64,000 nucleotides of DNA from a virus (IMGVR_UViG_3300046318_000171:1-64000); one strand, 5' to 3'; counted from the stretch's first letter, positions 5,776 to 46,570 are shown. A program made the numbers and translations. Notes: generated by a model from the letters alone, not told the origin.

Positions 5776-5855
5776 GATGTTTTCTTCCTGTTAGGTTGTT
5801 TTGTTTGTGTTGGGGGACCACCCGAAGGTGGCCCCCCTTCACGAGGTGTTTGCTA

Positions 5856-21017: not shown

Positions 21018-21092
21018 TGGCTGACCATCCAGGGGTCGAACCTGGGACCTTGGAGTTAACAGCTCCCTGCTCTGCCTCTGAGCTAATGGTCA
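21018..21092 (-). tRNA. tRNA-Asn (GTT)
   Basis: Acceptor TGACCAT/ATGGTCA + G + CCA; D arm GCTC/GAGC; anticodon loop CT-GTT-AA; T loop GGTTCGACCCC. Confidence 0.95.
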
Positions 21093-21190: not shown

Positions 21191-21220
21191 ATCTTAGAAC
21201 GCCCCTGTAGGATTTGTCAA
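21191..21220 (-). promoter_or_regulatory. Sigma70-type promoter TTGACA-18-TAAGAT
   Basis: Consensus -35 at 21220-21215 and -10 at 21196-21191, upstream of the leader and tRNA. Confidence 0.65.
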
Positions 21221-23401: not shown

Positions 23402-23730
23402 AACCACCATTTTAGGGCTACTGCCTGAAAAATAAAGCACTACCTGTGTTTTTCACCTGACCGTTATCTTTCTGTTATCCATTCTAACCCTAGGGGGGAA
23501 TAATCGACCGCTTATCTTGGGACTATCGGCAACGGGCAGACCGCTAGGCGGTCTAGCCACGGCTACGCCGACACTCTCACGCTTCGCCACACTCTCGCCT
23601 AGTCGGGTTTCGTGGCAACTCACCAGCGTGAGTGTTGTCGGTTGTTTGCTCGATTACCGCTTGACGGAGTGGCCACGCTTCGGCGTGCCGTCTGGTGAGG
23701 TTTGGTTAGCCTATGGAGTAATCGTTTGGC

Positions 23731-23797
23731 TGGCGGGTGAGGTACGCCCGTGAACAAAACACGGGACTGAGTGGTGCAACTCCACTCTCCGCCACGC
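23731..23797 (+). ncRNA. Mini-tRNA-like element 1
   Basis: Acceptor-like GGCGGG/TCCGCC, hairpin CCCGTG/CACGGG, T-arm-like GAGTGG-TGCAACT-CCACTC, then ACGC. Confidence 0.55.
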
Positions 23798-23850
23798 ACT
23801 TAGTGCCGTCTAGCAATCGCTAGGCGAAAACCAATCGAAAGGTACAGATT

Positions 23851-24276
23851 ATGTCTGCACTTACCGCAACACGCACCACCACCACCGCTCGCAAGGGCAT
23901 CACGGTCAAGGTAGTTTCACCTACCGTCATCAAGCAGGCGCAAGCCTATGCAGATGTCCCTACTTGGATGCTCGAAGAGCTGCGAGACGGACTGGCACAG
24001 ATGCGAGAGTCTTGGATGCTCACCAAGGTCGACTTCACCGATGTCGCCAAGAGCCAAGTCAAGAAGGCTCAAATCACCGCTATGGAAGGTGGTAAAGCGA
24101 AAGACCGCTACGACCGCCTTGTACGCCTAGGCAACAAGCACGACGTAGTGTTTACCCGTGTGCTGAACAAGTTCCTTGCAGTCCAAGCAAGCCTTGAAGC
24201 AGCAAACTACGCCCTAGCACAGCGTAAGAACCGAGACGCAAGCCGTCTTGGTAATGGCACCGCCAACCTAGCATAG
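23851..24276 (+). CDS. Hypothetical early protein
   Basis: 141 aa ORF with GAAAGG RBS; first gene of the + strand block. Confidence 0.7.
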   Translation: MSALTATRTTTTARKGITVKVVSPTVIKQAQAYADVPTWMLEELRDGLAQMRESWMLTKVDFTDVAKSQVKKAQITAMEGGKAKDRYDRLVRLGNKHDVVFTRVLNKFLAVQASLEAANYALAQRKNRDASRLGNGTANLA

Positions 24277-24290
24277 CCAAACGCTAGGAA

Positions 24291-24349
24291 GCCTGACCGG
24301 AGAGAGAGAACACTCGTCTCCCGCCGGTTCACGACCGAGTCAGGCACGC
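24291..24349 (+). ncRNA. Mini-tRNA-like element 2
   Basis: 7-bp GCCTGAC/GTCAGGC, internal hairpin, T-arm-like CGG-TTCACGA-CCG, then ACGC. Confidence 0.55.
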
Positions 24350-24632
24350 CAACAGAGCCGTTTCGGCTACTGCTTCCCCCAAGCAAGCCGTAAGCAGTCG
24401 TATGGCCAGATTACAGAGCACCTCCCTCGCCTGTTATCAGGTCATACAAAGCCCTGTGGCAGGGGAGAGAGGGCAGAGACAGGTGTTTGAGTCTATCTAG
24501 TCTCTTATAGATGTTTCTTCTCTCTCTCTCCTCACAAGTAACACCCCAAAGCCCCTCTTACCTAGGGGGGCAAGCCCCCCTGAGACCCCCCGCATAGTCG
24601 GGGCGTTCTTAGGCAAGCCGAAAGGAAGAAAG

Positions 24633-24806
24633 ATGACTGAAAAGCCAGTCTTCACAGCAGAAGAGCTGCTCACCATCTACGAGATAGCAAGCCTGTTCGA
24701 CAAGAGCAAGCCAGGCTACGCAGATGTCAAAGACATCGAGCCAATCAAGGAGAAGATTCAGGGTTGGGTAAGCCGTGTCTCAGACGGAAAGATGGTCCTC
24801 CGATGA
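24633..24806 (+). CDS. Hypothetical protein (not in ORF track)
   Basis: GAAAGGA RBS; MTEKPVFTAEELLTIYEIASLFDK..., 57 aa. Confidence 0.55.
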   Translation: MTEKPVFTAEELLTIYEIASLFDKSKPGYADVKDIEPIKEKIQGWVSRVSDGKMVLR

Positions 24807-24825
24807 GCAAGAAGAAAGGAAAGCC

Positions 24826-25128
24826 GTGTTTAAGCAAAAAGTAGAGAAAGACTTCATTCTCGAAGTCCTAGGTGAAGACAGAGAAGTTATCCTCACCATA
24901 GATACTTGGGAAGAAGCCGTCAAGTATGCGAAAAAGCACCTTGACAACAGCGGTCAAAGACTGAATCTCGAAGCACCTAAGCGTGTAGAGATACGCACAG
25001 TGTCGTTCTACATCTGCAAAGGATGCCGTCGAGAAGTCAAGACAGACACTAGCAATCTCAAAGGGATTGTCGGTATGTCTATGTTCCTGTGTGCAAGATG
25101 CACCCTCGAAGCAATACAGAACCTCTAA
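24826..25128 (+). CDS. Hypothetical protein with C-terminal CxxC...CxxC zinc finger
   Basis: GTG start after AAGGA; 'CKGC...CARC'. Confidence 0.55.
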   Translation: MFKQKVEKDFILEVLGEDREVILTIDTWEEAVKYAKKHLDNSGQRLNLEAPKRVEIRTVSFYICKGCRREVKTDTSNLKGIVGMSMFLCARCTLEAIQNL

Positions 25129-25137
25129 GGAGAACGA

Positions 25138-25335
25138 ATGACCGAGCAAGACATTGCCAAAGTTCGTCAAGCAATCATTGACAGCATTCACGCTGACTTT
25201 GCCGAAGAAATAGCGGCAGAGAAAGCATCAGGTGATGAAGAACAATTCCACGCAGCAATGCAGGAACTAAGCATCTACAACAGCCTAGCCCGCTTCGACA
25301 AAGCAATCGCCCTACTAAACAAGGAGACAAAATGA
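25138..25335 (+). CDS. Hypothetical protein
   Basis: AAGGAG RBS. Confidence 0.6.
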   Translation: MTEQDIAKVRQAIIDSIHADFAEEIAAEKASGDEEQFHAAMQELSIYNSLARFDKAIALLNKETK

Positions 25336-25598
25336 GCGACTACAAACCGCTTACCATTGGTGAACTCATCAAGAACCTCAATGAGTTTGACCCAAACGAA
25401 ATTGTCATCGGCGCAATCTTCACAGCAGAGCACTTGGTGTTCTGCCCAGATGAAGATGCCGAAGACGAAATCACCCCATCGCAAGAACTGATGTCAGTAA
25501 TTGCCGAGAACTACGACAACTCAGATGAAGCAATCTATCTGTCAGAAACGTTAGTTGGTTGGGCTATCGATAACTACAGGGAGGTACCGAACGAATGA
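25332..25598 (+). CDS. Hypothetical acidic protein
   Basis: AAGGAG RBS; resembles 31204..31431. Confidence 0.6.
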   Translation: MSDYKPLTIGELIKNLNEFDPNEIVIGAIFTAEHLVFCPDEDAEDEITPSQELMSVIAENYDNSDEAIYLSETLVGWAIDNYREVPNE

Positions 25599-25843
25599 GG
25601 CTAGCCGTAGCCCTAGGGCGAACCTTTCGTGACATTCGCTTAGAGCAAGCATTGACGCTGCGACAAGTCGCTAAGCAATCACACTGCTCTCTTGGACACC
25701 TATCCGAGATGGAGCGGGCAGTCAAAAGCCCAACACCAGAGATGTTGGAGAACCTAAGCCGTGGCTTTGGTATCTCAACAGTCGAGCTACTCATCCGTGT
25801 AGCCGCAACCCTAACAAAGGAGGAACAGAAATGTTCACAGTAG
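25595..25843 (+). CDS. XRE-family helix-turn-helix regulator
   Basis: 'RDIRLEQALTLRQVAKQSHCSLGHLSEMERAVKSPT'. Confidence 0.85.
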   Translation: MRLAVALGRTFRDIRLEQALTLRQVAKQSHCSLGHLSEMERAVKSPTPEMLENLSRGFGISTVELLIRVAATLTKEEQKCSQ

Positions 25844-26076
25844 CAAGCGAGTCAGAACTCCCAGAGCGTGGCCCAGGTGGCAACGCCAAGTGGAAGCAAA
25901 TCATTGCGGAGGTCAAGAAGCACCCTGATGTGTGGCTAAAACTTGACCAAAAGGTGGTCAACACCTCATCTGCCTATGCTCTACGCCGTTATGGTGTAGA
26001 AGTTCGAGTGCGCAACTCAGAGCCTGACGGCTACACCATCTTCGTTCGCTTCCCGTCATCAAAGATTGACGAGTAG
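25831..26076 (+). CDS. Hypothetical protein (possible DNA-binding)
   Basis: AAGGAGG RBS; 81 aa. Confidence 0.6.
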   Translation: MFTVASESELPERGPGGNAKWKQIIAEVKKHPDVWLKLDQKVVNTSSAYALRRYGVEVRVRNSEPDGYTIFVRFPSSKIDE

Positions 26077-26208
26077 TTATGTGGATGGATAACACAGAGG
26101 CCAAGCCCACCTGCTCTTGCCCACGATGCCAGTGGAGCACAGAGTTGTGGACAGCGTATCTACGCACACGGGCAGGCGTGCCGACACAAACACGCACGCA
26201 CTAGACTA

Positions 26209-26268
26209 GGGCGAAACCGAGATGTGAAATCCTCGGTCGCTAGGTAATCTGCCTAGCCTGACGAGCCC
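26209..26268 (+). ncRNA. Type II hammerhead ribozyme
   Basis: GGGC-GAAA-CCGAG(loop)CTCGG-TC^-GCTAGG(loop)CCTAGC-CTGACGA-GCCC: all core nucleotides and three stems; GUC cleavage after 26238; intergenic. Confidence 0.9.
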
Positions 26269-26301
26269 GTCAGTTATGACCTACTAAAAAGGAGAAATCA
26301 A

Positions 26302-26463
26302 ATGGGTCGTAAGAATCACACGCACACCAAGCCTCAGGGACACAAGACCCGCAAGGCTGTAGCGGTATCAGTAGAAGCACCAGCACCACGCAAGCCAGCA
26401 CCAACTAAGGCGTTGCGTGTAGGTCAGGTATCTTCTGAGTGGCAGTCAAGGCGTGGTGCATAG
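26302..26463 (+). CDS. Small basic peptide (not in ORF track)
   Basis: AAGGAG RBS; MGRKNHTHTKPQGHKTRKAVAVSVEAPAPRKPAPTKALRVGQVSSEWQSRRGA. Confidence 0.6.
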   Translation: MGRKNHTHTKPQGHKTRKAVAVSVEAPAPRKPAPTKALRVGQVSSEWQSRRGA

Positions 26464-26610
26464 ATGACCACAGCCTACAAAGTCTTAGCGTATGCAGGAG
26501 TCGCAGTGATGTGGCTTGCTGTATTCGCAAGTGGTGTTGTGCCCCTTATCTTGGGTGCAACACTAGCGGGACTAGGCACAAGCCTAGTTCTAAGTCAACT
26601 AGATAAATAG
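26464..26610 (+). CDS. Small membrane protein (not in ORF track)
   Basis: 48 aa with two hydrophobic segments; abuts the previous stop. Confidence 0.55.
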   Translation: MTTAYKVLAYAGVAVMWLAVFASGVVPLILGATLAGLGTSLVLSQLDK

Positions 26611-26618
26611 GAGGAACA

Positions 26619-28382
26619 ATGCCAACTATCCCAGACCTAACGGTCGAAGATGTTGTCGCTGACCCACAAGTCGGTGTAAGTGTTCGGCATCTGCTGAACA
26701 ACTGGCGTGGGTCACAAGCCCGTTTGTCTGTCTATGGTAAGACAGACGCACGCATCCTTAGTGCAGCGTGGGACAGCCCACGTGATGTAAGTTCTAAGGA
26801 AGATGCAGTTGCTTTCGCTACTTGGATTACCAAGTTGTGGGACCACAGCAACCACATCACCAGCAACATTGAGTTGTTCTTGCCAATGCTGTCGTTGAAC
26901 ACAGACGATAGCGTGTCTATCCGCCACGCAGGTATCCAATCTACGTGGATGCGAGATGACATTGGCAACAGCGACATCATTCGCATCAAGGTAGATGCTA
27001 TCGCCAAGTTGTTTGGCGACCAAGCCAAGCTGCTGAGTTACGAAGAGTCGTCTGCACTCGGCTACAACAGCGACCGTGCAGTGTTCAGGTTCGTCAACAG
27101 CGACAAGTTTGCTGATGACTACATTGCAGACTCAAGTCAGCCGCTTATGGTTCGCACCAAGTGGTTGGCTGAGCGCAAGGCTTGGCAAGATGCAATCAGT
27201 GGTATAGGCTATTCGTCAGTGCAACCTACTGCTGACGGCAAGAGCCTGCTGTATGTGATGCCGTGCAACTCACGGTCGGTCAAGTCAATCGGCTTGTCAA
27301 TGTACCGCAGAGTTGCTGCTGGCATTGTTGGTATGAGCAATCGCCCAACATCAGCAGACCTCTGGCGTCACTTCCGCAACGAAGTCATTCGTCTAGAAGC
27401 ACGTGCCAATGGCACAGACGAAGCGGTGTTGCAGCAGCTCAAGTACAACAACTACGAGCAGTTCTGGTCCAAGATGAAGCAGGACAAGAAAGAGCGAGCC
27501 AAGGTTGTTGACCAAGCGGCTGTCGAAGCAATGTGGGCAACCATCCCAATTGCTGAAGCAGGCACCGAGTCAAGTCGTGGCTGGGGTATCGAAGTCGAGA
27601 CAGTTCGTGCTAACCAGACATCACGACCACGTGGTTGGGAAGATGTGTACGACGGCTCACTGCCAGAGTCCGGTGGTGGTTGCAACTGTGGTTGCGACGA
27701 CTGCTGCAATGGTGACCACTGCGACTACGAAGATGACGACTGCTTCGCCAACAGTGGTGGTGGTGAGTCAAGAGAGTTCGTCTCACCTATCCTGCGGTAC
27801 TTCAACAGCAATGGTCTGCGTCAGTTGTGCGGTGACCTTGGTGATGTCGAGCAATCTACAGCCCCAGGTATCCACGTTCACGTTGGTGCCGAAGACCTGA
27901 CAGTCACAGACGTAGCCCGTGTGCTGTTTGCCTATGGCGTAGTTGCTCCGTTCATCCAGCCGCTGTATCACCGCAAGGTGTTCGGTTACTGCCAAGAGAT
28001 GCCCGGCAACAATGTCCAGTGGTGGCTGACTGCTGCTAAGCGTCGTCTACAAGAGACAGGCAGAGTGCCACGACCTGCTGACATCTGCCACGAGCAGCCC
28101 GTCAACCGCTACCAAGATGTGAACACTCACGCCTTGGCTGCACACCAGACCCTAGAGTTCCGTGCTATGGGTCCGTTCTACAACTACGAGCACCTAGTCC
28201 GTTGGGCTTGGTTCTGCCGAGAGATGTTGAATGTATCCCGACTCAACCTAGACCAGCGTGTCTGGACTAGTTGCGAGTCACTCACTGATGTCATCAATGT
28301 ACTACGCAAGTATGGCTCAGAGTTCCCAACCGACAAGTCGCTGGCAGACACGCCAGCCGACACAAACACATACGAAGAATAG
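26619..28382 (+). CDS. Putative amidoligase (COOH-NH2 ligase, glutamine synthetase-like fold)
   Basis: 'WGIEVET', 'DGSL', 'REFVSPIL', 'GIHVHVG', 'RYQDVN', 'TLEFR' motifs of the putative amidoligase family; extra N-terminal ~310 aa. Confidence 0.85.
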   Translation: MPTIPDLTVEDVVADPQVGVSVRHLLNNWRGSQARLSVYGKTDARILSAAWDSPRDVSSKEDAVAFATWITKLWDHSNHITSNIELFLPMLSLNTDDSVSIRHAGIQSTWMRDDIGNSDIIRIKVDAIAKLFGDQAKLLSYEESSALGYNSDRAVFRFVNSDKFADDYIADSSQPLMVRTKWLAERKAWQDAISGIGYSSVQPTADGKSLLYVMPCNSRSVKSIGLSMYRRVAAGIVGMSNRPTSADLWRHFRNEVIRLEARANGTDEAVLQQLKYNNYEQFWSKMKQDKKERAKVVDQAAVEAMWATIPIAEAGTESSRGWGIEVETVRANQTSRPRGWEDVYDGSLPESGGGCNCGCDDCCNGDHCDYEDDDCFANSGGGESREFVSPILRYFNSNGLRQLCGDLGDVEQSTAPGIHVHVGAEDLTVTDVARVLFAYGVVAPFIQPLYHRKVFGYCQEMPGNNVQWWLTAAKRRLQETGRVPRPADICHEQPVNRYQDVNTHALAAHQTLEFRAMGPFYNYEHLVRWAWFCREMLNVSRLNLDQRVWTSCESLTDVINVLRKYGSEFPTDKSLADTPADTNTYEE

Positions 28383-28391
28383 GAGATACTT

Positions 28392-29489
28392 ATGTGTGGT
28401 ATCGCAGGCTTTAGCCTAAGTAAGACCAGCAAGATAAAACCTCGACAGTTGTCGAACGCTTTGCTGGGTGCAATCGAGGACCGTGGCGGTATGGCTTCGG
28501 GCTTCGCTTGGCAAGACAATGAGCATATGGGGTTCTACAAAGCAGCCGTCACCGGCTCTACCCTGTCGCTCAAGACAATGCCAAAGGATGTGCGTAATGT
28601 TATCTTGCACACCCGCCTAGCCACTCACGGCTCAACCAATGACAACCGCAATAATCACCCAGTGCTCTCGCCTAACGAGGACATTGCGTTGGTTCACAAC
28701 GGAGTCATTTACAACCACAACCAAGTACGCAATCAGTTGGGTATGACACTGCCAGATGTAGATACAAGTGTTATCCCTGCAATCATTGAGCAGCGTGGGC
28801 TTGACTCTATCAACGAGTTGGATGGTGATGCCGCAATTGCGTGGTTCAACCGCAAGGAGCACAACACTATGCACCTTGCACGCTACAAGCACTCACCGCT
28901 AGTTATGGCTCAGGTAGAAGACGGGTCATTCATCTTCTGCTCAACCGAGCAGTTGCTATGGCGTGTGCTTGTCAGTATGGACCTAATGCCAACGTGGATG
29001 GAGACAGCCAGCGAGCTGGACTACTTCACCATCCGTGATGGCGTAGTGATGAGCAAGTCGATGTTGCCTGAACCTAAGTACAACGACTACTCGTACGACT
29101 ACTCGTACTTCCGCCACCAGACAGCCGGTGCCAAGCCAAAGACTATCGGGTCTTCGTTTGCGTACTACGACGAGTGGGACGACGACTACACCCCGTATTC
29201 GTTCAACGGTAAGAACACCGACCGTGATGACGAGTTCGACAATGACGACGACTATGCCGAAGACGACTTCAACACTGACAATGTTGTGCCGCTCAATCGT
29301 GCAAAGTTCTACACCGTCATCTACGACACCATCATCAAAGACCACGAGTACATCTACTACTACGGCGACGAAGAGAAGACGTGGAAAGACGAGTTGTTCA
29401 TCTGGGCTAACGAGAACTACATCAAGTTAGTTGACTACGGAGTAATCGACAAGGGTGAGTTGCTCTCAACCACTGACGAGTTGTTCTAG
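28392..29489 (+). CDS. Class II (Ntn) glutamine amidotransferase with acidic tail
   Basis: N-terminal MCGIAG, 'HTRLATHG', 'NHP', 'HNGVI', 'VDT'. Confidence 0.9.
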   Translation: MCGIAGFSLSKTSKIKPRQLSNALLGAIEDRGGMASGFAWQDNEHMGFYKAAVTGSTLSLKTMPKDVRNVILHTRLATHGSTNDNRNNHPVLSPNEDIALVHNGVIYNHNQVRNQLGMTLPDVDTSVIPAIIEQRGLDSINELDGDAAIAWFNRKEHNTMHLARYKHSPLVMAQVEDGSFIFCSTEQLLWRVLVSMDLMPTWMETASELDYFTIRDGVVMSKSMLPEPKYNDYSYDYSYFRHQTAGAKPKTIGSSFAYYDEWDDDYTPYSFNGKNTDRDDEFDNDDDYAEDDFNTDNVVPLNRAKFYTVIYDTIIKDHEYIYYYGDEEKTWKDELFIWANENYIKLVDYGVIDKGELLSTTDELF

Positions 29490-29565
29490 TTGCAATGTCG
29501 GGCAGGTGCTTGTGCGTGAGTGCCTGCCCGACACAAACATACACGCACACGATAAGGAGATACAA

Positions 29566-29967
29566 ATGGAACAAACCACAGTAGCAGGCTTAGTAGCCAC
29601 TACACCAAGACACCTAGTCACACAAGACGGGTTGCCAATCACCTCGTTTCGTATGGCAGTACCAACACGCCGTTTCGACAGAACCACGAGCAAGTGGGTA
29701 GATGGCGAAACTAACTGGTACACAATCACAGCGTTCCGCCAACTAGCAATCAACCTTGTAGGCTCAATCAGCAAGGGTGAGCGTGTGCTAGTGCAGGGTA
29801 ATTTGCGAGTGCGTGACTGGGACAACGGAGAGCGTGCCGGTACAAGCGTCGAAATTGAAGCGTTGTCAGTAGGACACGACCTGAACTGGGGCACAGCAGT
29901 GTTCACCCGCACCGTGCTAACGCAGGATGTAGACCCAGCCGCACAAGAACCACCATACGAGTACTAA
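29566..29967 (+). CDS. ssb: Single-stranded DNA-binding protein (bacterial OB type)
   Basis: 'GLVATTPRH', 'RRFDR', 'GETNWYTITAFRQLA', 'KGERV', 'GHDL'; ATG at 29566 after AAGGAG. Confidence 0.9.
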   Translation: MEQTTVAGLVATTPRHLVTQDGLPITSFRMAVPTRRFDRTTSKWVDGETNWYTITAFRQLAINLVGSISKGERVLVQGNLRVRDWDNGERAGTSVEIEALSVGHDLNWGTAVFTRTVLTQDVDPAAQEPPYEY

Positions 29968-29978
29968 GGAGAAAACAA

Positions 29979-32900
29979 ATGACTGATTTTGTGTGCAACA
30001 ACTGTTCCTACGAATGTGATTGGGTAAACGAGCAGTATCTATGCCAGACCTGTCTCAATGCTTACAGGTCAGGAGTGATAGAAACACGCTCCAACATTCG
30101 TTGGCAGTCCACACTCACACGAGAGATGGTTGACCATCTTCCTTGGGATGTGTGGTCAAGCCTAGAAGACGAACTCAACGAAGCAGTCGCAGAGTTGTGT
30201 GCGAAATACGGCGTAAGCGGAGACGATTACGGCGACGAAACAATCCAGATACTAGAAATAAAGGAGAACAAGTAATGACCCCGTTTGAAAAGTACCAAGA
30301 AGCAATCCTAAAACAGTTCAACGCTTTCTTGCGGTCAGGTAATCGAGAGCCGGTAGACAAGTACGATGTGTACTTCCAGTCGTACCTAATCGGTTCGATG
30401 TCTGCTTTGGTTAGCGACGAGAAGTACGAACAGCACACGGCATTTGCCCTAAGTGAATTGGAGAACAAGTAATGAGCAAAATCGTTTACTTCGTAGTAGG
30501 CGTAGACCTTGAAGCCAAGTCTGCGTTCATTGACGACGACACTTTCCTTGCCAGATTCGACAAGGAAGAAGCCGTCTTCGACGACTCAACAGGTAAGTGG
30601 TCGGCAGACGACGACCTAGTGCTTTACAAAGAAGCACTAGAAATCCTCAACAACACACCAATAGCAAAGGACGGAAACTAATGACACTCGAAGAACTAGA
30701 AAGAGCAATCACCCGCTGGGGCGACATCACCTACCTAGGCGTGTACACACTACGCAAAGATGGTGCGTTCATCAAGATGGTAGTCAATGGTGCATCTAAG
30801 CAAGACATCGAAGATTACCTGCGAGATGAATACCCTGACCACTTCGAAGAAGAGGACTGGGAAGACGAAGAGGAAGAAAGTGAGTAGACCAACTATTCGC
30901 CTAGCCAACGACCTTGAAGCAGAAATCCTGCTTGGGTATGTTGCTGAGTTGCTAGATGACGATAACGATGTAGTCACTGGGTTTGCCAGAGTAATGCTAC
31001 TGAGAACCTATCGTCAACTAACCGAAGCACTAGAACTAGTAGACATAGGTGAATGCGACAACTGCGGACACCAATACGACACAAGTTCAAGAAATGACAG
31101 GTGCGGAGATTGCGGGCTATGCGGTGCGTGTTGCACTAGCGAGCCTGAGCACCAGCCAACACAAACACTCAAACCGCAATACGAGTACTAAGGAGAACAA
31201 ATAATGACAGTTGGAAGACTAATCAACCTGTTGCAAACCCTGAACGAAGACGAGCCAATCGTGTTTCAGTTCTTGATTGCCGAGCACGTCAATTACTCAG
31301 CAGAAGACTTTGAACGTATCGCTGACTTCCTAAAGGACAGCGGCCCGTTTGGAGAGGACATAGCACGAGTTCTAAAAGAATGGTGCGGAGAAGCATTTGA
31401 CAACCTAGACGAGTGGGAAGAGGAGGACTAGATGTCTAAGCACTACATCAAGGTACTAGTAGAGTACTGGTACGAGAGCGACAACGACGAGTTTGAGTCG
31501 TCAAGTGCAGCCGAGGAGTTCGGTTGGAACATTGACGAGCTCAACTACGGAAGCGTTCAATCAATCACCGTTGAGGAACTACCTAACGATGAAGAGGAAG
31601 AAGAGGAGAACTAAATGGGAATCAAGTACTACGTGCCAATCAACCTAGACATTGAGGTTGAAGCAGACAACGCAGACAAAGCGTGGGAAGAAATCTACAC
31701 CAAAATCAATGGGCAAATCATTGACCTAGTAGAAAGCAACTTTGCTGGGGTGTCATTCGTTCTAGAAGTTGGCGAACCAGATGAGGTGCGTGACTAATGG
31801 AAATCAAAATCGATGACACATCATGGAAGACCTTGTTCTATTCTCTCATGGAAGCAATTGAAGACAACGAAGACCTGATTGACTTGTACGAAGTGTTCGA
31901 ACAAGCAGGAGCAGAACTCGACGCAGATGAGGAGGACGAGTAATGGCAAATCACACACACCTAGTCGTGGCATACGACCACGACACCAAGCAGTTCTGGT
32001 TCGATGGCGATGGTTCACGAGAGTGGATTCGCCGTCTGTTCACTCCTGAGACCAACACTTGGTCTGATGAGCAGGAAGAGTACATCGCTATCCCTGCCGA
32101 GCAGGAGCAAAAGGCAATCAACGCACTTGGAGCACTTGGTATCGACATTACTAACGATAGTGCACTGGTCTGGCAGGAGCAGGGATGAGCAATGCCAACA
32201 CAAACAAGGAGCATCAAATGGAATATGCAGTAGCAGTAGAGCGGGAACGTATCCTGCAAATACTAGAAATGAAATTGTCATCAATGATTGACAATGACCA
32301 ATGGTCAATGACCCGTAACGAGTTCAACGACCTAATCGATTACATTGCCAATGTAAAGGAGGATAACTAATGCAGGACACCTACATCCTAGACAAAATCA
32401 TTGAGTACCTGGAGAACGGCGGGATACTCACCAAAGAAAACTATGAAACGTTCATCATTGAGTGCTAAGGAGAAAAAAAATGATTAAGTATCAAGAACTA
32501 GGCTACAAATCGTACGTTACTGGTGACGGACACAGCGGTGTTGAGAGCGTAGTTGTATTCGACCCCGACGAGTTGTACGACCAGTACCCACAAGTGTGGG
32601 ACATCATTGAGAACATTGCAGATTATTTCAAGTATGACTTCGTGGTTGCTTTCCTAGAGCAGGACATGGAAGTACTGGAAGAAGCCGCAGCAGAGCACGG
32701 ATTCGACATCTCGGTAGTTACAGACAAGGAGAACTAATGACTAAGAAACAATTACTAAAATTCGCAAACGAACTGAGCGACACCGAAGAGACTGTAATTT
32801 TTGCTTACACAAAGTTCGACATTGACTACGAACGAGAGTACGATAACTTGCCACCGCTTACAGACGAGCAATGGGAAAAGTTCCGTTACTGGATGAACAA

Positions 32901-35073
32901 GTATGTCGATGTATCTAACGACTATCAAGACGCTTTACACTACGCACTAAAGGAAGGCTAGAAATGACTGAAGTAGCACTAAACCTGTGGGACGCTGACT
33001 TATACGGCGATGGCAGTGGCGGTAGAGGTATCAAACTTACCGCTTATCAAATAGACGAAGACCTTGCTGTAAATTCGGCTGTGTTCATTAGCGTCAACTT
33101 GACTAAGGATGACCTACCTAAGCGGTATGTTGTAGACGACGAGTGGGCTTACCCGGGCAGTAAGAAGTTCACTAAGTGGATGCAGCTGTTTATCGCTAAG
33201 CAGTTAGAAAGGAAAACAAAGTGAGTGAGTTCAAAGTAAAGGTAGAACGCCACTACTCGTACGAAGTAGTCGTTGCCGCAGATAGTGCGGAACAGGCTAG
33301 GGAGTTAGTACGTGACTATGAAATCGAAGACCTGGAGTCATTTGAAACAGACGCCTGGTTTGACTTCAGTTTTGCAGAGGAGGTAAAGTAATGACAATTG
33401 AACACGAGTACGAAGTACGTTTCATTTTGGAACTATCCAACATCATCACGCTGGCTATTACCGCAGAAGAAGATGAAGAAGCAGCAATTGCACAAGCCGA
33501 AGACCGCTTAGCACTTGACGGCATCGATATCCAAAGTTTGGATGTGCTTGAAGTAACCGCAAAGAAAACAGGAGAGTACCACTAATGACAGACACATCAA
33601 CCTACACAGACGGTGAAGTACTAGACGCTATCTATGACTTCATTGGTAACGGAGGAACACTAGGGCCGGATAACTTTGACGAGTTCATGGCTACCTTTGA
33701 GGAGGAAACAGATGGAAGCAAATAAGATGATGCACTACCAGTTCGTCAGTGATTACGCAGTAATCAAATTTACTGTGCCTGGTCGAACTGAATGGTCAGA
33801 GGAAGAGTGGGATTCAGCCGCAGACTCTGACCTAGTATCATACGTACACAACCCAGAGCAGTACTACATGGATGACTGCTGGGAACTAGAGGAGGAAACA
33901 AATGAATAATACCGGAACAATAGCAGGACTAACTGCTGACCTCAAAATCCTTCGTGCAGCGTATGCAAAAAGGAACTTGTGGTCTGAGGCTAGGGTAGTA
34001 GATTTGATTCTAAACAAAATCGTTGCCCCTTACGCAGAGGATGAGGAAACAAATGAGTGAACCACAGGGCTACACACAGGCAGTTGTTGACATTTTGAAC
34101 TCACAGCTTGGGCAGTCAATTACTCAAGCGTTCACGGCTGGTGAAGAACACGAGCGTAAACGCATCATCAGTTTGCTTAGTCACTTGCACGACGAGTATA
34201 CTGACGACTACGGCTACACCATGGAATCCATGGCAATCTCTAACGCCATTGACCGTATCAAAGGAATCACAAAATGAGTAAGCACAAACGTCAGTTGTCT
34301 GTACTAGGATGGGTAATCTACTTCCTAGGAAGAACAATCAAAGTACTACTACACCTACAGAGCTCGATAATGATGGCTCAGGAACGGAGAAAAAAATAAT
34401 GGATGAAGAAAGATACCTGTCCCCAGAGAGCATGATGAAAATGATTGACGCTCTGGCTGTCGAAGTAATCAGAGCCGGTGAAGCGGAGTCATACCTAATC
34501 AACAACGAACTACTCACCAACGAACAGGTGACCACGGTAATGAAGGCCAACACCTTCCTGACTGTGTTCGCTACGTTGTTGCTACGCATTGTTGAGCGAG
34601 AGAAACCTGAGTTCGCCAAAATGATTTTAGACATCTGGATAGACAGCCCAGTCAAGAACCTAGTACGCCTAGCCTTTGCTGAAGAGATTGAGGCAGCAGT
34701 TGCCCACATCGCTGACGGCATCAACGAACTAGAGCAGCTAATCAACCGCAAGGATGATTAGTGAAGGCTATCAACGGAACTAAAGTGTTCGGGTGGTGCA
34801 TGTTTCCTATGAGCGACGCCCAACACAAACTCTGTAAACTAACCAACATCAATGCCGACGGCACTACACGCACCTGTGAATGCCCCTGCCACAAGGAGAA
34901 AACAAATGAATAAAGACATCAAAGCACTGATAGATGGCTTAGCCGTTGGGCTAGGCTTTGTGGGTGTGACGGGCTTTGCAATAGACGCAAGCAAATGGCC
35001 CACACTATTCCTGCTTATCTCAATATCCATGGCACTACCAATCGCAACACGACTAAAGGAACACGATGAGTGA
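29979..35073 (+). other. Array of about 25 small, mostly acidic, translationally coupled hypothetical early genes
   Basis: Consecutive 30-130 aa ORFs, most with an AAGGAG/GGAG RBS and TAATG/ATGA/GTGA overlaps; several paralogous families. Confidence 0.7.
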
Positions 35074-37841: not shown

Positions 37842-39317
37842 CTAGTTCTCTATCTGATTACGGATAATCATGGTGGTTTTCTCTTCGCCTAACCCTGCCT
37901 GCTGGTCCTTAACGGCCTGCACACGGTCACCAAAAATCGCACTCAAAACACCCTGTCCAGCACTACGCTGCGCAGTAATCTGGATGAACTCTTTGTTCTC
38001 GTCCAGCTCTTTAATATTCTTCAACATCTTCTGATAACGGTCAATCTCTTGCGACACGTTTGGGTCTGCGTATCCACCGTTCAATTCTTCTGCAAACCGC
38101 ATAAACATTACTCTCTGGGCCTGCATCTCCAACATTGCGGTATTCAATGCACGCAACTGTTCAGGGGTCTTAACCTCTACTGGCAGACTAAACGCACAGG
38201 TGTTTTGCGGCTTAAATGCAGGGCAATTTGACGCTACAAAACAGGTGTCGCACTGGCGCAAACTGGTCACATTTGAACTAACAACAACGCTGTCTTTGAG
38301 GACATCAACACCGTTTTCGGTTTCCACAACCTGCTTGACTTGGTACCCCAAAACAGGCATTGAAACGACCTCTTCTGGGTCTCTTTGGACCACTTCTGAG
38401 CGTTCAACTTTCCGCATCTCCGACCCACTGTTATTAGACGACCCCCCACCCATTTCCATCAAACCCGTGTATAGGGTGTCGTCACTCTTATCAGATAGGA
38501 ACGGGTTATTATTGGTTGTCATGTTGCCTTCTAACTGTAAATATGACCAAACGGCTACTTTAGTCGCTTCGGTTGTGTCGTCGTCTACGAACTTTTTGAA
38601 ATCTAGCCCAGCTCGGTCCAACGTCGCCTTGTATCTCGGTCGGGCCTGGGCTTTCATTTTTTTTGGGTATCGAACCAGCTTCATTCCATCCCAAATGATT
38701 GTCTCACCATTTCTCATTGGTGACAACCACGACAGTGTGCTTGTGGTTGTAAACGGAATACTCCTCAGGTTATCCGGTTTGGCCACTGCAAGGCCGTGGA
38801 ACCGTGTTTGATACTTTTGGACTAAACTACGTGTAATCCCCGCTAATGCCGTCACAGCGTCTACAGCGGCTCCTGGGAGGGCAATGTTCTGGTACTCCTC
38901 TGCCCACTGACTTATCACCGGCAAACCGTACGCTTCGTGCCACACCACCCACAACTTAGGGTCGTTCTCAAATGCGGCTCGTTGCTGCTTAATCCACGGC
39001 AATCCCATTACCTGGCTGTCAAACTCAACCCAGCCCTCAATACGGTCGTAATTTAGGGCGATAAACTCTTCATACTCGGCCGCATAATCCTCTAACTCGG
39101 CCCTTGACAGGTTGGCTTTATCCGCCTGAGTTGCCCCCGAGTCTACCCACACTTTCATCTCTGGCAGGAAATGCTCACCAATTAGATACGCCTTGTTCTT
39201 AGGCAACCCACGCTTCTTCAACCCCCAGTAATTCAACATTACGTGTTGAACACCGCTCTTCTCCAATAGGGTGCGGTTTGACGGGATTTCTACGCCCCCA
39301 AAAATTACCCTACTCAA
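37842..39317 (-). CDS. TGT/DpdA-like TIM-barrel protein with C-terminal Cys4 and helical domain
   Basis: 'VWVDSGA', 'VEFD', 'VVWH', 'IALPG', 'FHGL', 'SW...R.G' occur in the order seen in phage tRNA-guanine transglycosylase-like proteins; 'CDTC..(5)C..(8)C'. Confidence 0.55.
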   Translation of the reverse strand: MSRVIFGGVEIPSNRTLLEKSGVQHVMLNYWGLKKRGLPKNKAYLIGEHFLPEMKVWVDSGATQADKANLSRAELEDYAAEYEEFIALNYDRIEGWVEFDSQVMGLPWIKQQRAAFENDPKLWVVWHEAYGLPVISQWAEEYQNIALPGAAVDAVTALAGITRSLVQKYQTRFHGLAVAKPDNLRSIPFTTTSTLSWLSPMRNGETIIWDGMKLVRYPKKMKAQARPRYKATLDRAGLDFKKFVDDDTTEATKVAVWSYLQLEGNMTTNNNPFLSDKSDDTLYTGLMEMGGGSSNNSGSEMRKVERSEVVQRDPEEVVSMPVLGYQVKQVVETENGVDVLKDSVVVSSNVTSLRQCDTCFVASNCPAFKPQNTCAFSLPVEVKTPEQLRALNTAMLEMQAQRVMFMRFAEELNGGYADPNVSQEIDRYQKMLKNIKELDENKEFIQITAQRSAGQGVLSAIFGDRVQAVKDQQAGLGEEKTTMIIRNQIEN

Positions 39318-42669: not shown

Positions 42670-44568
42670 TTAACGTAGAACGGTGGCGTTTACTCGTGGA
42701 ATTCCCACGCCTGCCATAGTTTGAAGGGTTTCACGGTACTTACCTACCAAGTCAGAACCTGCGCCTAGGTGAGCGAGGTCCTGCACGTGAGAGCTCTCTG
42801 ACCCTGCTTTAGCGAGGTACTTTGCAGCGTCAGTAGTACGGTCCATGGCTGTACGCATGTGTCCAGCCAAAATCTGTGGGTCAGCAGAATCGTTGCTCTT
42901 AAGGTAACGGCTGTGCTCCTGGAACGCTCCTAGGGCGTTGTTTAGGTGCTGAGCTACGCTAGGGTCAACGTCTACACCCTGGCCAACCAAGTCTCTGTAC
43001 GACTTCTTTACAGCGGTAAAGTGGTCGTACATGTTCTGCATCTGGCTCTTAACACCAGGTGCGTACTTAGCGGTACGTTCATCAGTTGCTTGGGTATTCT
43101 TGGCTTGCTGGTTGGCGAAGATTTGTGCACGAGTCATCTCACGCAAACTTCCCCATGACGACTTACCTTCACGCTGCTGAGTTGCACGGATGTTTGGTGC
43201 GTAAGTAGCAAACGCCTCATCTTGACGTTGCTTCTTCAATTCCTCAAGGTCTCTTGCGGTGTTCTTCTTGTCATAACCTACAGGAGCCATAACAGGCACT
43301 GACGTGTCCTGCTCTCTTGGAGATTGCGCACCAGGAACGTTGATGTTGTTTTTCTTCAAGTATTCTGCTGGATTTTTTTCGACTTCTGCTCTTGCAAACG
43401 CATGAGATTGTGCGGCGCTTCTCTGAACCAAGTTCTGGTTTCCTGAAGCGTATTCTGTAAAACTACCCGCATTATCAAACTTGTTTACCGCTTCTTCGTA
43501 TCGTGCTTGGTGGTCTGGAGATGGGAAAGCCAACTCAAGAGTTCCGTACCTAGTTGACCCACCAAAATCACGAGGAGTTGGGCGCACTGGAACAGGGTTG
43601 TTAGCGTCGAAGTGCTGCAAAGCTGCCTGCTTGATTACTGGTGACATACCAGCAACAGGGGTGACTGTGGCTGAGCTACGGACCATACCGATTGTTCTAG
43701 GCGGAGTCTTTGCCTCGGTGTACGCCTGAGCCTCTAGTGAACGCTCGTAACGTTCACGGGCATGCGATGCGTGGTCTTCACCGTTAGGGAACAACTCACG
43801 AGTACCAAAAGGAGCACGGTTAGTCTCGTTGATTACGTCGCCAATTCCCTTACCCGAACCTTCTTTTCTGCGCATGTGCCCAACAATTTCGTTAGCAGCA
43901 TCACCATAAGTGCGGTTTTGATTGCGGTAATTGTTAGTAAAATCTCCACCACTTTGGCCAGCGATTAGGCGTAGGTGGTGAGCAGCCATGCCGATAGCTT
44001 TTGCTGCCATGTTGAGGTGGTCACCCGGAGTTCGCAAACGCTGGTTCTTAATCTCAGCGACATCGTTTCCAGACAATGCCTGTCCAGGAATTTCGGCGTC
44101 ACCCAAGTGCAGGGCACCGTACAAACCTAGCTTAGCTCCACCACCAGTTTTCCAGTTAGTTCCCTTGCCACCACGGGCAACGTTTTCTGCGTCCGCAATG
44201 TGAGCGTATGCGTTTCCAAGTAGTGGGTGAACGTGAGAGTCTAGAAGTGCTCGAGTATCCTCGTCTGCGTTGTCGTGGTGCTCATCAGCAGCGTTACTCA
44301 GCTTAGTGATGAGGTCTGACATGTGCCCAAACAAATCGTTAGGCGCAGTACCTGTGCTAGCTGCCTCAGTGTACTCTGCGACACGGTCAACTTTTTTTGC
44401 CTCTGCAGCACCCGCAGCAATCTTGTTAGTCTTAGTGCCTTTAGGTGCCATTCCCTTTACTGCAGCACGAGTTAGGCGAGCGGCCTCTGCACGCTTGGCA
44501 GCTTCTGCTGGCGACTGGCCTTTTAGGTAGCCGCCGATTCCGCCTTGATTACCATTGTTGGTTGCCAT
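42670..44568 (-). CDS. Large Ala/His-rich hypothetical protein (possible internal virion protein)
   Basis: 632 aa helical ORF, no recognisable motif. Confidence 0.6.
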   Translation of the reverse strand: MATNNGNQGGIGGYLKGQSPAEAAKRAEAARLTRAAVKGMAPKGTKTNKIAAGAAEAKKVDRVAEYTEAASTGTAPNDLFGHMSDLITKLSNAADEHHDNADEDTRALLDSHVHPLLGNAYAHIADAENVARGGKGTNWKTGGGAKLGLYGALHLGDAEIPGQALSGNDVAEIKNQRLRTPGDHLNMAAKAIGMAAHHLRLIAGQSGGDFTNNYRNQNRTYGDAANEIVGHMRRKEGSGKGIGDVINETNRAPFGTRELFPNGEDHASHARERYERSLEAQAYTEAKTPPRTIGMVRSSATVTPVAGMSPVIKQAALQHFDANNPVPVRPTPRDFGGSTRYGTLELAFPSPDHQARYEEAVNKFDNAGSFTEYASGNQNLVQRSAAQSHAFARAEVEKNPAEYLKKNNINVPGAQSPREQDTSVPVMAPVGYDKKNTARDLEELKKQRQDEAFATYAPNIRATQQREGKSSWGSLREMTRAQIFANQQAKNTQATDERTAKYAPGVKSQMQNMYDHFTAVKKSYRDLVGQGVDVDPSVAQHLNNALGAFQEHSRYLKSNDSADPQILAGHMRTAMDRTTDAAKYLAKAGSESSHVQDLAHLGAGSDLVGKYRETLQTMAGVGIPRVNATVLR

Positions 44569-44771
44569 TACGCCATCTTTCCTTTAATTCTTTTTGCTCG
44601 CTTAATCTCAGCACAAGGAGAGCAAATACCTAAACGACTGTACATGTACTCCGTAGGGTTCATCACAATACCGCATGATGGGCAAGCAGATGAGCCTTTA
44701 TACAGGGTAGCATTTTTTGCGATTTGAAATGCCTGAAGTTCTAAAGTTAGAGCGCCGTCTCCGTCGTTCAT
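44568..44771 (-). CDS. Small zinc-finger protein
   Basis: 'CPSC...CSPC'. Confidence 0.6.
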   Translation of the reverse strand: MNDGDGALTLELQAFQIAKNATLYKGSSACPSCGIVMNPTEYMYSRLGICSPCAEIKRAKRIKGKMA

Positions 44772-46570
44772 TACTCCCCAATCTTAGGCAGTGATGGGAC
44801 GACTGTGCGGTCACGCATAGTTTCCTTTGCCATTGCCATGGCTTGAGCAGTACCGCTTGCTCGGAGTACCTTGCGCAAATCTTTAGGAACCTGTCCTTGC
44901 CCCTCTACACCGGTGCCTGTTCCAGCAACAATGTGGTCGTGGGCTTCTTTGATTAGTGCGGTCATACCACCTGGGGTAATTCGCTCAATCATTCTAGGGC
45001 CAGATTTTTCTGGTTTTGCGGTAGATTTACGTGGCTTCTTAGCTTCAGCTGCTTCTTTAGCCAACTGGTCTTTGATAGACAACGACGGCCCCATTTCGCC
45101 AACCGGACGGTCAGGTCCTCCGGCACGAGTAGTTACTCCACCGGTGGTTTCTACTGGGACACCTACAGCGGCACGGCCAGCGTAAACTGCTCGCTGACCC
45201 TTACGAGTCTGGTTAAGGAATCCTTGAAGTTTAGGAATGTCTGGGTGGTTAGACGAAACGGCTTTCAACTGAGTTAGCAGCTTGTTGCTGATAGGCTCCT
45301 GACGAAGTTTACCTGCAGTTTCTGAGTTTACAACTTTACCGTTCTTAACAATAGGCTGTTCACGGTCTGTAGAAATAAACATGTGACCTGGCTTTGACAA
45401 AGCATCTTCTGGATTAAGAAGGTTGTTGTCCTTGTCGTACCTAGCCAATAGCGGGTCGATGTCCTGGAGTGCCTGAACGTTTGTCTTGTTCTTCGGAACC
45501 TGTAGACCCTTAGTTTTTTTCTCTCCAGTAGGAGTGGTGGTCTCCTTGTAACGGACTGCGTTTGCTACATCGCTCATTTCGCTGTCTGAGACTGGGCTCT
45601 GCAAACCGTGCTTGCTAAGCAACGAACGGTTAAGGATTCCGTTAGCGGTCTTTAGGTGCTTAACTGCTTTAACGATGAAGGCGTGGTTGTCCGCCTGGTT
45701 TTTAAACTTAAACTTACCATCGCTACCCTTCAATCCACTAAGAATAGACTGCGCCTCGACCAGGTTGTTATCTACTCCAAGCTTCTCACGAAGAACGTGT
45801 GCGCTTGCTTGCGTGCGAAGTTCTCCTGCGCTATCACGAGCAGTGTTTATCATGCTTCTGACTGAGCCAGCAGCCTTACCTTTTAGGGAATAGCCTTGGC
45901 TTATAGTGTCTGCAACGTTGGCACGACGGTCGTACTCTGACGCTTTTGAGTTTAGCTTTGAATCCAATCCGTCATAGTGCGCACGGATTCGGTCATGGAT
46001 GTCCATGGCGACTTTCCATGCCTTGTCTGCTGCGCCTGCACCACTAAAAGTTTGGCGCTTAAATGATGGGCCAGACTTAACTGGAGTAGGAACAAACCCT
46101 TTGTTGTGCTCACACTTATCGGTGCTGCAACGGCCACGCAAGATGTGGTCAGTGATATGCTTAACAGCGTCTTCGGTAACACGAGACTTATAGATGTTGT
46201 CTTCAGTGTCAATCTTGTCTTCAAGAGAGCTGCCTTCTGCCTGCTTTTCTGCAGGAGTTCGGTAGTCTGGGCGGGTCCTGACACCGTCTAGGTCTATCTC
46301 AGATAGGTCAGTGTTCTGGGCTGTAGGTGCGGCCATGTCAGCAGTAGACAAGGTGCGGCCCGAGTCATACTCGTCAAATCCTTTGCCGCCAACTTTAATC
46401 TTGTCAGCGTCGGCCTCGCTCATAGCGTGGGCAGAGTCGGCCCTCTTACGGCCCTCTTCGGCCTTAGCTGCAGCAGTCGTCTCTGCAGTGTCGAGAATTG
46501 CCTCGCCACCTAAGACCTTTTGTGCTTCGCTTGCGCTTTTAAAGAGTTCGCTGCGACTTACTGAACGCAT
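44771..46570 (-). CDS. Large basic hypothetical protein (possible internal virion protein)
   Basis: 599 aa ORF, no recognisable motif. Confidence 0.6.
   Translation of the reverse strand: MRSVSRSELFKSASEAQKVLGGEAILDTAETTAAAKAEEGRKRADSAHAMSEADADKIKVGGKGFDEYDSGRTLSTADMAAPTAQNTDLSEIDLDGVRTRPDYRTPAEKQAEGSSLEDKIDTEDNIYKSRVTEDAVKHITDHILRGRCSTDKCEHNKGFVPTPVKSGPSFKRQTFSGAGAADKAWKVAMDIHDRIRAHYDGLDSKLNSKASEYDRRANVADTISQGYSLKGKAAGSVRSMINTARDSAGELRTQASAHVLREKLGVDNNLVEAQSILSGLKGSDGKFKFKNQADNHAFIVKAVKHLKTANGILNRSLLSKHGLQSPVSDSEMSDVANAVRYKETTTPTGEKKTKGLQVPKNKTNVQALQDIDPLLARYDKDNNLLNPEDALSKPGHMFISTDREQPIVKNGKVVNSETAGKLRQEPISNKLLTQLKAVSSNHPDIPKLQGFLNQTRKGQRAVYAGRAAVGVPVETTGGVTTRAGGPDRPVGEMGPSLSIKDQLAKEAAEAKKPRKSTAKPEKSGPRMIERITPGGMTALIKEAHDHIVAGTGTGVEGQGQVPKDLRKVLRASGTAQAMAMAKETMRDRTVVPSLPKIGE

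Follow-up and report, generated by a model that had tools for sequence, protein, structure and literature searches.

A candidate hammerhead ribozyme, a repeated 12-mer box and folded RNA in the gaps of the rightward gene block of a BRock-like myovirus

The DNA discussed here, positions 23,402 to 29,565 of IMGVR_UViG_3300046318_000171:1-64000, belongs to a 91-kb BRock-like myovirus, in which it forms the start of the one gene block that is read rightward. The window, meaning the whole stretch that was analysed (64,000 nucleotides, nt), comprises the initial 64 kb of an IMG/VR virus record that is 91,238 bp long and has terminal repeats, and the genes of this genome run leftward throughout, except in a rightward block of 12 kb at ~23.5-35.6 kb. 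An earlier reading of the sequence, here called the original prediction, proposed that the gaps between the first genes of this block program one long early transcript, which is cut at tRNA-like folds and at a ribozyme into pieces that could act in trans. Our analysis slightly favors a different arrangement, in which the signals in the intergenic gaps are separate and act in cis, and do not make up an integrated system of tRNA enzymes and a ribozyme. The RNA and box elements appear, from the sequence, to be mostly real as features: a likely type II hammerhead lies ahead of an amidoligase operon, a 12-mer box recurs along the genome, and the gap behind the first gene has the character of a highly folded RNA. 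The features and their statistics are direct observations, and it is from these that we infer cleavage, transcription and every function discussed below.

Between 23500 and 29540 there are only four real gaps (23441-23850, 24277-24632, 26077-26301 and 29490-29565), and the remainder consists of tightly packed or overlapping genes. The recognizable products of this region are an Xre-type helix-turn-helix (HTH) protein, an amidoligase, a glutamine amidotransferase and SSB, the domain of which starts at the start codon at 29566.

A candidate type II hammerhead ahead of the amidoligase operon

The third gap contains a candidate hammerhead that is composed of the following parts.

26209-26272, with a 3' tail to 26280, +: type II hammerhead candidate, complete core, full-length sub-threshold match to RF02276
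26209-12 with 26265-68, +: stem II, 4 bp
26213-16, +: GAAA of the core
26216-21 with 26232-37, +: stem III, a 6-bp hairpin ending in U and followed by C
26239-44 with 26252-57, +: stem I, a 6-8-bp hairpin
26258-64, +: CUGACGA of the core
26269-80, +: 3' tail after stem II

Every element of the invariant core is present (CUGANGA, GAAA, the A15.1-U16.1 and G10.1-C11.1 pairs, and a non-G at the cleavage site), the core is enclosed by three helices, of which stem II is the open one, and the GUC cleavage triplet places the predicted cut between C26238 and G26239. The element lies 30 nt upstream of the ribosome-binding site of the operon that encodes a 53-aa protein and the amidoligase, with the cut site 63 nt before the ATG at 26302. 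In a scan of 121 nt with laxer filters, the model RF02276 aligns end to end with 23.2 bits (E 0.0055). A descriptor of our own, run in all three permutations, found exactly one match in the 91-kb genome, with stems of 6, 8 and 4 bp, whereas among 536 genomes simulated with a first-order Markov model some match occurred in 29 and stems as long as those observed occurred in none. On this sequence evidence the hammerhead at 26209-26272 is likely to be real, and it probably adds a member to a class already known.

Several results weigh against this assignment. The score of 23.2 bits does not reach the Rfam gathering score of 37 bits for RF02276, and the element was missed by a gathering-threshold Rfam scan, by a 6.4-kb scan based on E-values and by a family-specific search of the genome. 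The minimum-energy fold consists of three hairpins in which CUGACG is paired to CGUCAG of the tail, masking the core; with flanks, this fold has an energy of -30.3 kcal/mol and the hammerhead-compatible fold one of -28.6 kcal/mol (-22.2 kcal/mol for the hammerhead structure alone). In the type II class a pseudoknot is usual between loop I and the tail that follows stem II, with at least 4 bp in the majority (PMC3088659), and the candidate pseudoknot found here by eye is bulged (3+3 bp, CUG-CAG and UAA-UUA with a one-base bulge between them) and has no contiguous run of 4 bp. The ribozyme of the original prediction stands as plausible from sequence, with a complete core, and falls short as a match at the Rfam gathering score.

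The masked fold and the low score would also fit a chance look-alike, in which 26205-26301 is a series of three ordinary hairpins in a 5' untranslated region (UTR) and CUGACGA is simply one arm of the third. Some relaxed match was present in 5% of the simulated genomes, and no hammerhead was seen in the distant relatives examined, a search of low weight. We nevertheless regard such a coincidence as unlikely: no simulation (0/536) gave an equally strong match, all invariant bases are correct, the site just 5' of a ribosome-binding site is typical, and the rival fold is better by only 1.7 kcal/mol. RF02276 searches of other phages, including distant relatives, found none, but these negatives weigh little because the same genome search missed the window's own copy. 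Our descriptor had zero matches in ~130 kb of other phage loci, which counts in favor of the candidate.

If the candidate is a functional hammerhead, it would most likely cleave itself between C26238 and G26239, which would leave the upstream RNA with the stem III hairpin as its 3' end, bearing a cyclic phosphate, and the amidoligase-operon mRNA with a 5'-OH, starting directly at the stem I hairpin. Because loop I and the CUGACG core can both pair with the same tail, the tail has two mutually exclusive partners and would either form an active pseudoknot with loop I or mask the core. Activity of this kind would provide a clean, ribozyme-made pair of ends at an actinophage-like operon boundary, the 3' end and the 5'-OH end each being capped by a hairpin, together with a built-in tail that can turn the hammerhead on or mask it.

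The gap before the hammerhead also holds an open reading frame (ORF) of 41 aa with a CxCxxC motif (26079-26204, +), which lacks a Shine-Dalgarno sequence, is absent from the protein collection and is probably not a gene.

A 12-mer box near gene starts

The 12-mer CCRACACAAACA has nine exact copies in the window, where 0.03 are expected (~300-fold), and ten in the genome, of which it is the most repeated 12-mer, collagen-like coding repeats aside. Seven copies on the + strand lie between 26181 and 36693, and in 9/10 copies the box is oriented with the local genes.

26181-26192, +: copy 1, precedes the hammerhead, with only a weak hairpin before it
28357-28368, +: copy 2, overlaps the hairpin 28337-28361, in the last codons of the amidoligase gene
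29528-29539, +: copy 3, its first six bases in the 3' arm of the hairpin 29496-29533, ahead of the SSB gene at 29566
31156-31167, +: copy 4, 36 nt upstream of the start codon ATG at 31204
32195-32206, +: copy 5, directly ahead of a Shine-Dalgarno sequence and of the start codon ATG at 32218
36693, +: copy antisense to the reductase gene
5802-5813, -: copy behind the strongest hairpin (-23.7 kcal/mol), just downstream of the major capsid gene
17691, -: copy within coding sequence
227, -: copy within coding sequence
81474, -: copy with an intrinsic terminator directly after it

Five copies (28357, 29528, 31156, 32195 and 5813(-)) stand 11-36 nt before a start codon that has its own Shine-Dalgarno sequence, and once the distance from box to start codon is 110 nt. 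An eleventh copy, at 34820, has one mismatch and a longer distance to the next start. The original prediction had described a composite motif of a hairpin and a repeat, and of this the repeat is clearly real, whereas a strong GC hairpin adjoins the box only at 29528 and 5813(-), where the upstream fold energies, compared with random genomic positions, rank in the lowest 0.3% and 0.1%, respectively. The hairpin at 31156 is moderate (lowest 4%) and that at 28357 borderline (lowest 8%). The hairpin 29496-29533 has 16-bp arms and a fold energy of -29.7 kcal/mol (z -3.65), and in three cases the stem takes in the first bases of the box.

These positions suggest that CCRACACAAACA may be an orientation-dependent box at cistron boundaries, recognized there by a factor of the phage or of the host, and that the hairpins next to some copies probably act as 3'-end stabilizers or attenuators. 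Copies in coding sequence (17691(-) and 227(-)), antisense to a gene (36693) or ahead of a terminator (81474(-)) speak against such a role, and because of them the rules of position are loose; those at 17691(-), 227(-) and 36693 look incidental. The copy at 28357 encodes ADTN, and this tail is kept in the three closest amidoligases (59-74% identity), the tail being otherwise variable, and is not found in more distant ones. That the closest homologues keep ADTN is a hint that the box is conserved at the amidoligase junction in related phages. Four BRock-type genomes contain only chance-level near-matches to the box, the equivalent block of BRock has no comparable repeat, and a literature search for the string returned unrelated papers only. 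The box is lineage-specific and of a known general kind. Two BRock-type phages have a near-match 3' of the capsid gene, which was set aside; in pSt2308 it falls inside coding sequence.

As to the level at which the box is read, we lean slightly towards DNA, with the box as a promoter or stoperator-like site, and give a reading in RNA somewhat less than an even chance. A more specific version of the former, in which the box is a phage middle promoter or a stoperator-like site for, e.g., the 82-aa HTH protein, would make the block several transcription units rather than one processed RNA, with the hairpins as terminators or attenuators. The box is strictly conserved, asymmetric and biased in orientation, as this version would have it, and 7/10 copies are within the 12-kb block that also encodes the Xre-type HTH protein. 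Stoperators are many repressor sites across a phage genome at which the repressor ends elongation, according to PMC9283540, and they are asymmetric and 13 bp long (PMC3203893; PMC9283540). The + block, including its head (23441-23530), contains no canonical sigma-70 promoter, unlike the equivalent block of BRock; in BRock, small genes at one end likewise form a rightward block, with a single canonical promoter, TTGACA-17-TACAAT, at its head. In the present genome the leftward tRNA and Hsp20 genes do have TTGACA-type promoters, at 21220 and 21905. Moreover, the box at 26181 is upstream of the hammerhead, and hammerhead cleavage would therefore separate it from the cistron that follows; a site for RNA cleavage would be redundant at that place.

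Other observations fit this version poorly. No phage RNA polymerase or sigma factor was recognized in the genome, and no DxDGD motif was found in any large ORF; the head of the block has no copy of the box; a terminator directly follows one copy; and the hairpins lack U tracts, while some stems include part of the box. Since the phage looks virulent, with no lysogeny genes among the genes annotated, an immunity repressor is not expected. Hence, a set of box-driven or box-stopped transcription units is a tentative proposal, and we keep to the broader view of the box as a signal at cistron boundaries.

Folded RNA around the first gene

The gap 24277-24632, which follows the first gene of the block (gene 1, 23851-24276), folds at -149.5 kcal/mol (z -7.1), with sub-elements at z -2.3 to -5.4. 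In a composition-corrected scan, based on regression over sliding 150-nt windows genome-wide (1822 windows), the windows of this gap rank 3rd, 31st, 39th and 42nd (top 0.2-2%), the 3rd being 24401-24550. It contains the following elements, in addition to a three-way junction that is described in the next section.

24355-24447, +: two C-rich-loop hairpins, with CCCCC at 24376-24380 and ACCUCCCUC at 24420-24428, z -5.43
24455-24536, +: long imperfect hairpin of ~35 bp with GA-rich and CU-rich arms, -42.1 kcal/mol, z -4.57
24551-24618, +: two hairpins of G/C runs just 5' of the ribosome-binding site of the gene at 24633, z -2.25

The C-rich-loop hairpins of the original prediction are indeed present: the 12-kb block has seven CCCCC runs on the sense strand and two CCUCC, and five of the former and one of the latter fall in this gap, where they are displayed in loops. 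The long hairpin is in the size range cut by RNase III. We find it most likely that the UTRs around gene 1 would act as highly folded RNA, with three-way junctions, C-rich loops and an RNase III-sized hairpin, that controls stability and translation. It should be noted, as a point against this view, that many coding windows elsewhere equal most of these gaps in structure.

An alternative long-range fold of the gap is possible, since the GA-rich arm in the three-way junction (24300-24319) and, 190 nt downstream, the CU-rich arm of the long hairpin (24509-24528) show 80% complementarity. Matches of 24455-24536 to miRNA precursors are spurious and reflect the long stem, and a reading as Y RNA was rejected for lack of a Ro60/TROVE gene.

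Upstream of gene 1, the strand switch is occupied by a leader.

23441-23731, +: non-coding leader at the strand switch, no credible ORF

A UUCG-capped hairpin is present near 23675-23688, and the divergent region has a perfect palindrome (7+7 bp with a 3-nt spacer, 23538-23554) that could be an operator for the HTH protein. The 410-nt leader region folds with a z of -3.0. With correction for composition, its 150-nt windows (23500-23750) are unremarkable, at +0.5 to -0.95 standard deviations, and the ~200-nt multi-stem leader that had been proposed is no more structured than composition predicts.

The tRNA-like folds and the proposal of a single processed transcript

Two mini-tRNA-like folds were thought to bracket gene 1 and to be cut by host RNase P and RNase Z. 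Both correspond to stable structures.

23732-23793, +: tRNA-like fold 1, D-armless, z -2.8, in the minimum-energy and centroid folds
24291-24345, +: three-way junction 2 (fold 2), z -4.06, the same in the minimum-energy and centroid folds

Fold 1 is made up of a 6-bp acceptor-like stem, a 9-nt linker, a 6-bp hairpin with a 7-nt A/C loop and a 6-bp hairpin with the T-loop-like sequence UGCAACU. The T-loop-like hairpin is stacked on the 3' strand of the acceptor (6+6 = 12 bp), with U at -1 and G at +1, and the fold is followed by A23794 and then by CGC. Junction 2 is made up of a 7-bp closing stem, a 10-bp bulged hairpin and a 5-bp hairpin; its loop is UUCACGA or one of 3 nt, an unpaired A stands between the hairpin and the acceptor strand, and the fold is followed by A24346 and then by CGCCA, with the CCA three bases beyond the discriminator.

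Searches with tRNA models gave these folds little resemblance to tRNA. In short pieces containing fold 1 and fold 2, the tRNA model RF00005 had no match even at E 10, and ARAGORN at default settings reported only the tRNA-Asn of the window and neither fold. Fold 1 is called by ARAGORN as Leu(CAA)-like only at 80% stringency (-ps80), a setting at which two candidates on the opposite strand are also called in the same 1.3 kb, and its score with the Tymovirus tRNA-like model RF00233 is 19.9 bits, below the cut-off of 40. Junction 2 has no T-loop consensus and no match to a tRNA or tRNA-like family in Rfam. A 3' CCA directly after the discriminator is found in neither fold (both have A-CGC). The folds thus stand as stable three-way junctions, the tRNA support for the first being sub-threshold and the second being simply a three-way junction.

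The proposal built on these folds was that one long early transcript is cut by RNase P and RNase Z at the two mini-tRNA marks, and by the hammerhead, into pieces that act in trans. RNase P cuts some phage and operon RNAs, e.g., the precursor of the P1/P7 C4 RNA, and in both folds an acceptor-like stem has a hairpin at or next to its 3' strand and is followed by A-CGC. Fold 1, with its T-loop-like 7-nt loop, its 12-bp coaxial stack, and the U at -1 and G at +1, offers the closest likeness, and it weakly matches the viral tRNA-like model. Set against these points are the missing tRNA-model match, an ARAGORN call at a noise-level threshold only, the lack of an adjacent CCA in either fold, and, in fold 2, the unpaired base and the absence of a T-loop. 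T-arm-like motifs number three in the genome, where 1.5 are expected by chance. Cutting by host RNase P or RNase Z is unsupported, and we consider the proposal improbable.

In its most detailed form, tRNA-like marks bracketing gene 1 are cut by RNase P/Z, the hammerhead and the 12-mer provide further cuts, and a C-rich-loop RNA of ~300 nt (24291-24632) mimics an anti-Shine-Dalgarno sequence in trans; this version is more doubtful still. A unified program of RNase P/Z and ribozyme would, if true, be a multi-enzyme RNA-processing program for a phage operon, which would be new; it goes beyond the present evidence and is speculation with very little probability. The combination of elements had moreover been presented as undescribed, and in this close precedents were overlooked, as hammerheads flank genes in polycistronic RNAs (PMC3088659) and boxes made of a repeat and an inverted repeat occur at actinophage gene starts (PMC3203893). 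The view of separate cis-acting signals is the one that we carry forward.

Genome setting and gene content

Streptomyces phage BRock and four of its kin have a capsid and a terminase with 50-62% identity to those encoded here, and the host of this BRock-like myovirus is probably an actinobacterium. BRock itself is a virulent myovirus of 112 kb (PMC7453282). The leftward genes of the present genome include structural genes (tail fiber, capsid, portal, terminase, sheath, baseplate) and glycosyltransferases, a replication set (DnaB, primase, SNF2 helicase, DNA polymerase A, RecA), and genes for ribonucleotide reductase and a DpdA-like transglycosylase. The genes of the rightward stretch to which the text refers are as follows.

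23851-24276, +: gene 1, 141 aa, no known family
25595-25843, +: Xre-type HTH protein, 82 aa
26302-29489, +: operon 3' of the hammerhead, encoding the 53-aa basic protein, a 48-aa protein, the amidoligase and the glutamine amidotransferase
26619-28382, +: amidoligase (Pfam PF12224/PF13522 and PHROG matches for the operon)
28392-29489, +: glutamine amidotransferase (Pfam PF12224/PF13522 and PHROG matches for the operon)

Gene 1 has no match in Pfam or PHROG and none in a search of the protein atlas; its AlphaFold model is all-helical and of low confidence (pLDDT 59), too poor for a structure search. Four homologues with 66-94% identity are present on short metagenome contigs, and the 53-aa basic protein groups with near-identical proteins on other contigs, one of which is 70.7 kb long. 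Near relatives thus exist at the protein level (homologues of gene 1, the 53-aa protein and the amidoligase). At the DNA level, searches against 50,697 phage records gave no match. A scan of viral contigs with five proteins recovered only three amidoligase loci (36-44%), which belong to unrelated phages of 43-60 kb and lack the RNA and box elements; a scan of metagenome contigs gave two partial loci and one of genome contigs none. Exact protein look-up of 20 spurious ORFs across the gaps returned a single, uninformative match.

Besides the pair of amidoligase and glutamine amidotransferase (26619-29489, +), this genome encodes a DpdA-like queuine tRNA-ribosyltransferase homologue (37842-39317, -; PHROG 887, 1.3e-57). 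The presence of this set in one genome suggests hypermodification of DNA bases of the 7-deazaguanine type. The sole tRNA in the window is a tRNA-Asn (21018-21092, -), by ARAGORN at default settings and at Rfam gathering thresholds. BRock is reported to have 29 tRNAs, upstream of the terminase and on the same strand (PMC7453282), and most of the array seems to have been lost relative to BRock. Two large ORFs of 632 and 599 aa (42670-46570, -) have no credible Pfam or PHROG family. An 11-mer, ACCCAGACAAG, has five exact copies (genome 464, 5615, 41242, 62957 and 88981), and those placed relative to ORF coordinates fall within ORFs.

Comparison with known systems

Early RNA of phage T7 is processed by RNase III, and tRNA punctuation or RNase P cuts operon and phage RNAs. 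As in those systems, structured elements lie between cistrons here, and the hairpin 24455-24536 is of RNase III size; the tRNA-like folds differ in failing the tRNA model. Fold 1 resembles the Tymovirus tRNA-like element (RF00233) in its T-loop UGCAACU and its A/C-rich, anticodon-like loop. It has neither a pseudoknotted acceptor nor a terminal CCA, and it belongs to the 5' UTR of a bacterial virus rather than to the 3' end of a plant virus, so the likeness is probably due to chance.

The candidate hammerhead shares with the type II class (RF02276; PMC3088659) a full core, the GUC triplet, a phage intergenic site before a gene and a possible pairing of loop I with the tail. It differs in its score of 23.2 bits against a cut-off of 37, in a stem II of 4 bp where the consensus has 2, in the interruption of the pseudoknot by a bulge and in a tail that can mask the core.

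Stoperators are found in short regions between genes, and their orientation follows that of transcription. Those of Cluster A mycobacteriophages (PMC9283540) are like the box in being asymmetric sites of 12-14 bp in many copies. They are bound by the immunity repressor of temperate phages, whereas the genes annotated here include none for lysogeny.

The box also differs from the start-associated sequences (SAS) and extended SAS (ESAS) of Cluster K mycobacteriophages. SAS holds a Shine-Dalgarno core and lies 3-7 bp from the start, whereas the box is CA-rich, has a separate Shine-Dalgarno sequence and lies 11-36 nt (once 110) from the start; the arms of ESAS are conserved in sequence, whereas the hairpins here differ among copies. 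The likenesses are nevertheless several, as both are short asymmetric repeats almost exclusively in one orientation, closely preceding start codons and concentrated among non-structural genes, with an inverted repeat directly upstream in about half of the copies, and both are absent from other phage groups and unexplained in function (PMC3203893). The box thus joins the SAS/ESAS and stoperator repeats of actinophages, the mechanisms of which are still largely unexplained.

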